Source of the DNA: Escherichia phage vB_Ec-M-J
Sequence record: OQ718158.1
Reading direction: 5' to 3' (one strand)
DNA: 64,000 nt
This document shows, piece after piece, positions 3,517-3,598 of the stretch. Made by a program: the position numbers and the translations under genes. The notes under the pieces were generated by a model. That model was not told where the DNA came from, did no database searches, and was given only the letters and a program-made list of their open reading frames with translations. Within the stretch, counting starts at the first letter, position 1, and each line of letters opens with the position of its first letter.

Positions 3517-3598
3517 CCGGGCGTATCTCAACGGTCTTCTAAACCGTCGTTAATCGAGTAACTGGAGTATGCAGGTTCGAGTCCTGTCGCCTGGGCCA
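3517..3598 (+). other. tRNA-like element of atypical structure (possible anticodon UCU)
   Basis: Acceptor CCGGGCG/CGCCTGG, T-arm GCAGG-TTCGAGT-CCTGT and CCA end present, but no canonical D-arm could be drawn. Confidence 0.3.

Follow-up and report, generated by a model that had tools for sequence, protein, structure and literature searches.

A conserved family of phage tRNAs with a proposed rewiring of the D-arm, and a probable tRNA-Arg(UCU) of this kind in Escherichia phage vB_Ec-M-J

The DNA considered here, 64,000 nucleotides (nt) of Escherichia phage vB_Ec-M-J (sequence record OQ718158.1; the window in what follows), is of the Asteriusvirus type, that is from a jumbo coliphage related to PBECO4 and 121Q, and between positions 3300 and 3700 it is 93-98.5% identical to BF17, Turkey3, EC.P1, PBECO4 and 121Q. 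Directly after a canonical serine transfer RNA (tRNA), the window carries a tRNA-like element of 82 nt, CCA included, with an arginine anticodon and no D hairpin (Table 1). A preliminary description, made from the letters of the window, had noted its pairing acceptor stem, T-arm, encoded CCA and anticodon-like stem-loop, and all four are present where it placed them. It had left open whether the element is a degenerate tRNA or some tRNA-like stable RNA, which is the question that we take up.

Table 1. Parts of the element and features next to it, in window coordinates.
Feature	Position	Strand	Remarks
Acceptor stem, 5′ strand CCGGGCG	3517-3523	+	pairs with CGCCUGG 3588-3594; 7 pairs, one G-U
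Connector UAU (U8 and A9 equivalents plus one U)	3524-3526	+	identical in all aligned copies
D-stem-like helix, 5′ strand CUC, then A3530 opposite C3555	3527-3530	+	pair counts in family alignment
Anticodon arm ACGGU / CUUCUAA / ACCGU	3531-3547	+	anticodon UCU 3538-3540; U33 = 3537; A37 = 3541
7-nt bulge CGUUAAU, from anticodon stem to 3′ strand of D-like helix	3548-3554	+	conserved in family
D-stem-like helix, 3′ strand, C then GAG	3555-3558	+	partner of 3527-3530
D-loop-like strand UAACUGGAGUAU	3559-3570	+	GG 3564-3565; A3566; A3561/U3570; likeness to canonical D-loop
T-arm GCAGG / UUCGAGU / CCUGU, canonical T-loop	3571-3587	+	
Acceptor stem, 3′ strand CGCCUGG; discriminator G3595; encoded CCA 3596-3598	3588-3598	+	
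Canonical tRNA-Ser(UGA)	3423-3512	+	ARAGORN call; Rfam tRNA 60.1 bits; 4 nt upstream of element
Promoter-like site TTGGAA-18 nt-TG-TATAAT	3383-3412	+	upstream of tRNA-Ser; consensus scan, 10/12 matches; extended -10 TG; consensus match only

Much of the element is that of an ordinary tRNA, with an acceptor stem of seven base pairs (bp) followed by CCA, a 5-bp T stem with a UUCRANY loop, a 5-bp anticodon stem with a 7-nt loop, U33 and a purine at position 37. The canonical D-arm is missing, as had been noted before: the acceptor and anticodon stems are separated by 7 nt only (UAUCUCA), there is no D hairpin between position 9 and the anticodon arm, and Infernal deletes 15 D-arm model positions at this point. 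Between the anticodon and T stems there are 23 nt, which the preliminary description had taken for an overlong variable region. The length is right, but the segment is not a variable arm, as GAG at 3556-3558 pairs with CUC at 3527-3529 and so encloses the anticodon arm in a further short helix. The family consensus fold described below has no conserved self-contained hairpin within 3548-3570, and thus no class II variable arm; a weak hairpin that single-sequence folding places in the 23-nt region is unsupported by the consensus and was set aside.

Standard approaches to finding tRNAs pass over the element. With default settings ARAGORN calls the tRNA-Ser and not its neighbour. A relaxed search, the check suggested earlier, gave no confident canonical call when run with ARAGORN, only forced folds that disagree: a tRNA-Asp(atc) at -ps90, with two Watson-Crick pairs in the D-stem and a four-pair anticodon stem that includes two G-U pairs, and in -mt mode a truncated 56-nt “D-loop mtRNA(tct)” with the wrong ends. 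Being mutually inconsistent, these were dismissed as descriptions of the element. Rfam family RF00005 gives no match to it at the gathering threshold with default filters. With permissive filters it reaches 32.6 bits (gathering score 29; E = 2.5e-5), in an alignment where 4 nt stand in place of 15 D-arm model positions and 20 nt are inserted in the variable region. Other Rfam families were rejected, sX4 with 25.5 bits against 70, and Twister-P5 and a plastid 3′ untranslated region motif well under their thresholds.

Public records label the same sequence in several ways. It is a tRNA-Leu(taa) in 121Q, where the sequence is identical, a tRNA-Val(aac) in Yaboi and a tRNA-OTHER in Roth39; short coding sequences called “hypothetical protein” or “unknown” overlap it in Mydo and Felix O1, and most other records have no feature there (inconsistently annotated records: KM507819.1 73585-73666; NC_048730.1 86686-86764; PQ657804.1 41154-41235; NC_048741.1 90616-90705; AF320576.1 ORF100). 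The labels in 121Q (Leu) and Yaboi (Val), together with the ARAGORN output at -ps90 (Asp), are what would speak for an ordinary cloverleaf misfolded by eye, be it one of these three or a class II tRNA with a long variable arm. However, the three labels conflict and use weak stems, and the covariation reported below backs only the acceptor, anticodon (UCU), T and enclosing helices, with no covarying hairpin in the 23-nt region, so that we give this explanation hardly any credence.

The element has many relatives. A BLAST search (coverage at least 80%) finds homologues at 82-100% identity in 243 phage records, with hosts of the element among Asteriusvirus, Felix O1 and other Ounavirinae, Vequintavirinae (A5-4, Mydo, Seu621) and Stephanstirmvirinae, and further in Justusliebigvirus (PHB05), Sugarland-like Klebsiella phages and Streptomyces phage Yaboi. 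About 100 further viral contigs came out of three pattern scans of IMG/VR. In total, 75 distinct copies of the arginine type were collected; these are often related, so the counts below are of sequences and not of independent events. Cellular genomes are nearly free of the element: a pattern search of 185,579 bacterial and archaeal species, one genome per species, found only four true copies, besides six chance matches, and all four lie on contigs of 6-41 kb from metagenome-assembled genomes, with further tRNA genes nearby in three. None of 5,426 complete E. coli genomes has it. The loci inspected are tRNA clusters that differ between phage groups, with no protein gene conserved next to the element.

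Several of the pattern scans fixed UAUC, GGAGUA and part of the T-loop, and for the GGA region the only unbiased sources are the BLAST matches, the pattern TATC-N8-CTTCTAA-N5-CNTTAA and a pattern that excludes C35. The second of these returned mostly chance matches in AT-rich coding DNA; the UCU-type members that it did find carry GGAGUA. With a covariance model trained on the family, members reach 82-99 bits and canonical tRNAs 38 bits at most, the 98.2 bits of the window copy being high by construction, since it is part of the training alignment. Another place in the window, 38328-38395 (+), scores 17.4 bits with acceptor-like and anticodon-arm-like pairing and no T-arm, and was rejected as a chance match. 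A generic descriptor scan over the collected loci gave false parses of canonical tRNAs (e.g. the tRNA-Met at window 5575), which were discarded.

Pairing was assessed in an alignment (A3) of 50 distinct copies for four helices, acceptor, T, anticodon and enclosing, against 500 shuffles and against partners slid along the alignment. Taken together, 94.6% of the cells are paired compared to 65.4% in shuffles, and the covariation score is 0.751 compared to 0.187 in shuffles and at most 0.145 with slid partners; none of the 500 shuffles reaches the observed value in either measure, and changes on both sides occur in 18 of the 21 pairs. The acceptor stem has such changes at all seven pairs (99.1% of cells paired), the T-arm in three pairs (98.8% of cells paired), and all five pairs of the anticodon stem covary. 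In the enclosing helix (3527-3529 with 3556-3558, columns 11-13 and 40-42) every one of the 150 cells is paired, compared to 74.8% in shuffles (0/500) and at most 43% with slid partners. Its first pair is invariably C-G, the second is U-A in 30 copies, G-C in 14 and A-U in six, and the third is C-G in 41, G-C in five and U-A in four. RNAalifold independently predicts the acceptor, anticodon and T stems only, so the enclosing helix rests on these explicit pair counts. The position next to it, 3530/3555, is mostly A.C or C.A, with a standard pair in 18 of the 75 copies.

The unpaired segments are conserved as well. Over the 75 copies the bulge has the consensus C-R-U-U-A-A-N, at positions that the search pattern left free, and the anticodon loop is almost invariant even where the patterns did not fix it. 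The UAU connector was fixed by several patterns, yet it is invariant also in the BLAST-derived copies. The T-loop follows UUCRANY in 75/75, partly by way of the search pattern, and CCA is encoded in 50.

These results bear on whether the element is simply a tRNA-Arg(UCU) pseudogene in decay, with its D-arm deleted and junk gained in the variable region. Such an origin would agree with the rejection of the element by standard finders and with the canonical tRNA-Arg(UCU) found at the same site in sister genomes (see below). On the other hand, the 82-nt architecture is found in phages of Proteobacteria, coliphages among them, and in those of Streptomyces alike, its four helices have compensatory changes and its unpaired segments hardly vary, and the diversity of pair types excludes a single recent clone; decay is thus a very improbable account. 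As the family is conserved and covaries across unrelated phage lineages, sequence comparison indicates that the element is a member of a large conserved phage tRNA family, not a decayed gene. The earlier wording “degenerate tRNA (anticodon UCU, Arg)” is therefore kept as to UCU and arginine and dropped as to degenerate.

What the 23-nt region might do is suggested by the canonical tRNA-Arg(UCU) that occupies the same site in other phages. In its UE-S1 allele a normal D hairpin, GCAC-AAUUGGAUA-GUGC, precedes the anticodon arm, and the variable loop has 5 nt. The D-loop AAUUGGAUA between GCAC and GUGC is closely resembled by the strand UAACUGGAGUAU of the element (compare also its AACUGGAGUA), which by contrast comes after that arm. 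In addition, the CUC(A) strand is followed at once by the anticodon stem (5′ strand), which in a normal tRNA is true of positions 22-26. From the D-loop likeness and the order of the strands we therefore propose that D-stem and D-loop are kept in space and wired differently. The strand 3527-3530 would be equivalent to canonical positions 22-25 and 3555-3558 to positions 10-13, GG 3564-3565 to G18 and G19 and A3566 to A20, with A3561/U3570 as a possible 15-48 pair. The D-stem-like helix would stack on the anticodon stem and enclose the anticodon arm, with CGUUAAU closing the gap on the 3′ side, and the last U of the D-loop-like strand would replace base 48. The chain would then run from the acceptor through the “22-25” strand, the anticodon arm, the bulge, the “10-13” strand and the “D-loop” (A14, R15, G18 G19, A20, A21) to the T-stem, keeping an L-shaped core with altered connectivity.

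A pattern that is agnostic to the anticodon found 71 distinct true members and one false match, and the anticodons of the true members are UCU in 67, CCU in two and UCG in two, all of them arginine. Among the 75 arginine-type copies C35 is present in every one, position 36 is U in 73 and G in two, U33 and A37 are invariant, and the discriminator is G or A in 68 (G3595 in the window). An A directly follows GG in 75/75 (A3566 in the window), including copies from the pattern that left this region free. The bacterial arginine identity set consists of A/G73, A20, C35 and U/G36, with A20 the main determinant for the E. coli arginyl-tRNA synthetase, ArgRS (PMC9976931). R73, C35 and U/G36 of the family match this set, and A3566 would take the place of A20.

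Two outlying arginine forms, and a third with an isoleucine anticodon, came to light through intermediate scores with the family covariance model. The locus L082 (numbered, like the other L loci below, within our collection) has at 2689-2766 a divergent Arg(ACG) form with the same wiring, a 3-nt bulge and the strand UAAUUGGAAUGAU. L058 has at 13348-13429 another Arg form with UCU, whose D-loop-like strand, UAAUUGGAUAGAACAU, is longer and which adjoins a CCU-type family member. The third, an Ile(UAU) form at L189 5506-5585 with an intermediate model score, shares the wiring.

The pattern that excludes C35 uncovered a whole sister family of this isoleucine type in IMG/VR, with at least 98 distinct sequences from at least 120 loci (L221-L339) and the same architecture. 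Among the matches listed, the anticodon is UAU in 81, CAU in nine, GAU in seven and UAC in one, the discriminator is A73 in 98/98, and a U follows GG in 97/98; in the same set the enclosing helix, which was not used as a filter, is 98.3% paired compared to 74.5% in shuffles (maximum 79.6%). The bulge is typically AGAAA and the strand UAAYUGGUNACAU (e.g. L232, L224). A sub-group (L224, L270, L280, L301, L303, L255) has the arginine-type bulge and UAAUUGGUGUAU, as against UAAUUGGAGUAU in the arginine type, and at conserved unpaired positions it differs from that type mainly by A to U after GG, C35 to A35, loop position 38 and the discriminator. The type also occurs, without annotation, in 77 records of Streptomyces phages and among crAss-like phages. 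Anticodon, position 73 and the base after GG thus switch together from arginine to isoleucine, which is what recognition by a synthetase predicts, and this joint switch is, as a pattern in the sequences, not readily accounted for by a decoy or a processing signal.

The decoy deserves a closer look, as a non-decoding tRNA mimic could act as a sponge for an anticodon nuclease directed at tRNA-Arg, for a modification enzyme or for another defence factor, and so shield the tRNA-Arg of host or phage. The family is phage-specific and has spread horizontally among unrelated virulent phages, its anticodon loop CUUCUAA hardly varies, which fits what a tRNA-Arg(UCU) decoy would need, and its odd body could keep the RNA out of translation. 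However, a decoy for the anticodon loop has no need of R73, an encoded CCA, a canonical 7/5 acceptor-T branch or GGA, all of which are conserved; anticodons vary among arginine ones only, and in the sister family the base after GG, 35 and 73 change together to the isoleucine set. The element moreover replaces a canonical tRNA-Arg(UCU) allele and fills an empty UCU slot, as described next. We consider a mimic unlikely.

In ten Asteriusvirus genomes (slurp01, G17, phAPEC6, UE-S1, CRJP21, Sharanji, ECO103 4-12-1, EC22.5-2, JP4 and ph0011) this site is taken by a canonical tRNA-Arg(UCU), again 4 nt behind tRNA-Ser and between the same flanks. The element is like this gene (as in UE-S1, slurp01 and G17) in site, flanks, anticodon, type of T-loop and encoded CCA, and its 3′ 35 nt match a T5-like tRNA-Arg at 91%. 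No element-bearing genome is found among the near-identical (at least 99%) matches to the canonical gene, and the two thus behave as alternative alleles. The arrangement of Ser followed by canonical Arg(UCU) is found in Erwinia phage Hallingskeid too. In the complete genome of Felix O1, 25 canonical tRNAs include arginine with ACG only, and the element, at 25,951-26,032, supplies UCU. ARAGORN reports a tRNA-Arg(tct) in six of 84 element-bearing loci, of which three are the element itself with flanks and one is the divergent form of L058, called at 13332-13429. AGA is a rare codon in E. coli. Over 61 open reading frames (ORFs) of the window (13,734 codons), it makes up 26.7% of the arginine codons, or 9.0 per 1000 codons, and AGG makes up 7.3%.

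Taken as a whole, the sequence evidence points to the element probably being an elongator tRNA-Arg(UCU) that works and whose D-arm is transposed. The sequence features, the covariation of four helices, the confinement to arginine anticodons, the distribution and the allelic replacement are shown, and we infer from them expression, processing, charging and decoding. The other option of the preliminary description, a tRNA-like stable RNA, holds in so far as the element is tRNA-like; as an alternative to a working tRNA-Arg it is less likely. Transcription would start at the promoter-like site and include tRNA-Ser(UGA), with which the element is probably co-transcribed. RNase P would release it with its 3′ end already CCA, and the host ArgRS would charge it by way of the A20-like A3566, C35, U36 and G73, for reading AGA (and AGG), frequent codons in the phage.

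In a scan of the locus no terminator-like site was predicted that would separate tRNA-Ser, the element and the downstream genes. The position of the element between a tRNA and an array of ORFs would also suit a punctuation signal of tRNA shape, in which the acceptor/T minihelix guides cutting between tRNA-Ser and the small ORFs by RNase P, or by RNase III where the helix is extended. Such extension is seen in eight of 86 sequence contexts, where leader and trailer prolong the acceptor helix by 12-15 perfect bp (19-22 bp in total) and CCA is not encoded, a form that looks like a processing substrate (loci L003, from phage A5-4, L012, L015, L026, L032, L044 and L057); the other contexts have 0-3 extra pairs, giving a bimodal distribution. 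Possible readings of the extended helix are a processing helix of RNase III type and the inverted ends of a unit that was inserted. In the window copy, by contrast, there is no extension and CCA is encoded, and a signal of this sort would have no need of an arginine-only anticodon loop, a covarying anticodon stem, an extra helix or the GGA strand. We regard punctuation as improbable; like the other rival explanations, it accounts for less of the conservation than a working tRNA-Arg does.

Several points weigh against a working tRNA-Arg with a transposed D-arm. The single-sequence folding energy of the element is unremarkable (z = -0.61), and the enclosing helix is short, with three firm pairs of which one never varies. 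Conservation of the strands comes partly by construction, as the search patterns fixed GGAGUA and UAUC. The putative 15-48 pair (A3561/U3570) varies in 2/75 copies only, once to G-C and once to G.G, which is too little for a test, and the assignment of G18, G19, A20, A21 and 48 draws on sequence resemblance and the switch between arginine and isoleucine. Two loci, L044 and L077, carry the element plus a canonical tRNA-Arg(UCU). Lastly, ArgRS, EF-Tu, RNase P and the ribosome touch the D-arm region of normal tRNAs, and in the element the path of the backbone would differ there.

The nearest known analogue is the animal mitochondrial tRNA-Ser(AGY/GCU), which has no D hairpin and in which a short “D-replacement” connector on the 5′ side of the anticodon stem pairs with sequence on its 3′ side to give an extended anticodon helix (PMC9427863). 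The element likewise lacks the hairpin and has its connector absorbed into an extended anticodon helix. In the human mitochondrial tRNA-Ser the tertiary core and the stable L-shape are lost, the T-arm is remodelled and a co-evolved synthetase is needed (PMC9427863). The element, in contrast, has a canonical 7/5 acceptor-T branch, a UUCRANY T-loop, a 12-nt strand with GG, a 7-nt bulge and normal length, and its partners would have to be bacterial ArgRS, EF-Tu and ribosomes in unmodified form. Class II tRNAs (Ser, Leu and bacterial Tyr) share with it a distance of more than 20 nt between anticodon and T stems, but they have a self-contained variable hairpin and a normal D-arm, whereas in the element the extra sequence has its partner in the 5′ connector and does not fold into a separate hairpin. 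Deviant tRNAs that finders miss or mis-type are known from phage tRNA clusters and metagenomes, namely the 8/4 and 9/3 allo-tRNAs and tRNA-Sec-like species (PMC5389517; PMC7609411). These deviate in the acceptor/T branch and keep the D hairpin and a long variable arm; in the element acceptor and T are canonical and it is the D-arm that is rewired.

Outside animal and some other mitochondria, a cloverleaf with a D hairpin has been deemed essentially invariant for elongator tRNAs (PMC9427863; PMC7609411), and a 2020 review of non-canonical tRNAs places D-armless ones in mitochondria only, with phages unmentioned (PMC7609411). We found no description of D-armless or rewired tRNAs in phages in open-access papers and bioRxiv, though an earlier account elsewhere is possible. 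As judged from sequence, the family would thus be one of tRNAs with a new secondary-structure topology, in a layout that we did not find described outside mitochondria.

A rewired tRNA core appears to be conserved in hundreds of phage genomes and viral contigs, with at least two amino-acid identities. If its members are charged and decode, then another chain topology is able to give an L-shaped core, and the family would be a natural test case for what ArgRS, the isoleucyl-tRNA synthetase (IleRS), RNase P, EF-Tu and the ribosome require. In that case codon-supply analyses of these phages are biased, since annotations miss or mislabel a tRNA for a rare codon, and the question arises whether rewiring shields phage tRNAs against defence nucleases that target tRNAs. 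We offer only as a speculation, and with low confidence, the broader idea that the transposed D-arm is a general phage-specific tRNA design, used for arginine (UCU, CCU, UCG, ACG) and isoleucine (UAU, CAU, GAU), which would keep exactly the features that synthetase, EF-Tu and ribosome of the host read while an altered backbone path through the D-arm and variable-loop region could escape a tRNA-cleaving immunity of the host or a phage-made nuclease directed at host tRNAs, so that decoding of the A-ending codons AGA and AUA would continue in infection. Rewired scaffolds could also serve as orthogonal or nuclease-resistant tRNAs.

Some further observations concern the neighbourhood and other loci. 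The anticodon stem of tRNA-Ser(UGA) (3450-3454 / 3462-3466), which had been called nearly identical to that of the element, is in fact identical, flanks included (CAACGGUCUU...AAACCGUCG; window 3448-3468 compared to 3529-3549), and the two loops differ at two positions only, both in the anticodon. Anticodon stems differ in other family members, so the identity has arisen by chance or through local gene conversion. Directly downstream of the element are three tandem paralogous ORFs of 54 codons (3620-3784, 3781-3945 and 3942-4106, all +), which all begin MTHEEWM and are joined by stop/start overlaps (ATGA); their equivalents in 121Q and UE-S1 are annotated as hypothetical proteins. On the minus strand of L167, at about 6108-6183, the 5′ half of an arginine-type copy runs through ...CGUUAAAAGCGUAAUU into unrelated AT-rich sequence with no T-arm, which may reflect disruption of the gene or a join made in assembly.

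Stable RNAs C and D of phage T4 belong to a tRNA cluster and are not known to have a function. In the phage tRNA arrays collected here ARAGORN made other odd calls, a tRNA-???(ga) in four loci, a tRNA-???(gtca) and one suppressor-like call of tRNA-Pyl(cta) type; the tRNA-???(ga) of L006 (Proteus phage Mydo), at 2063-2137, is annotated as tRNA-Ser.

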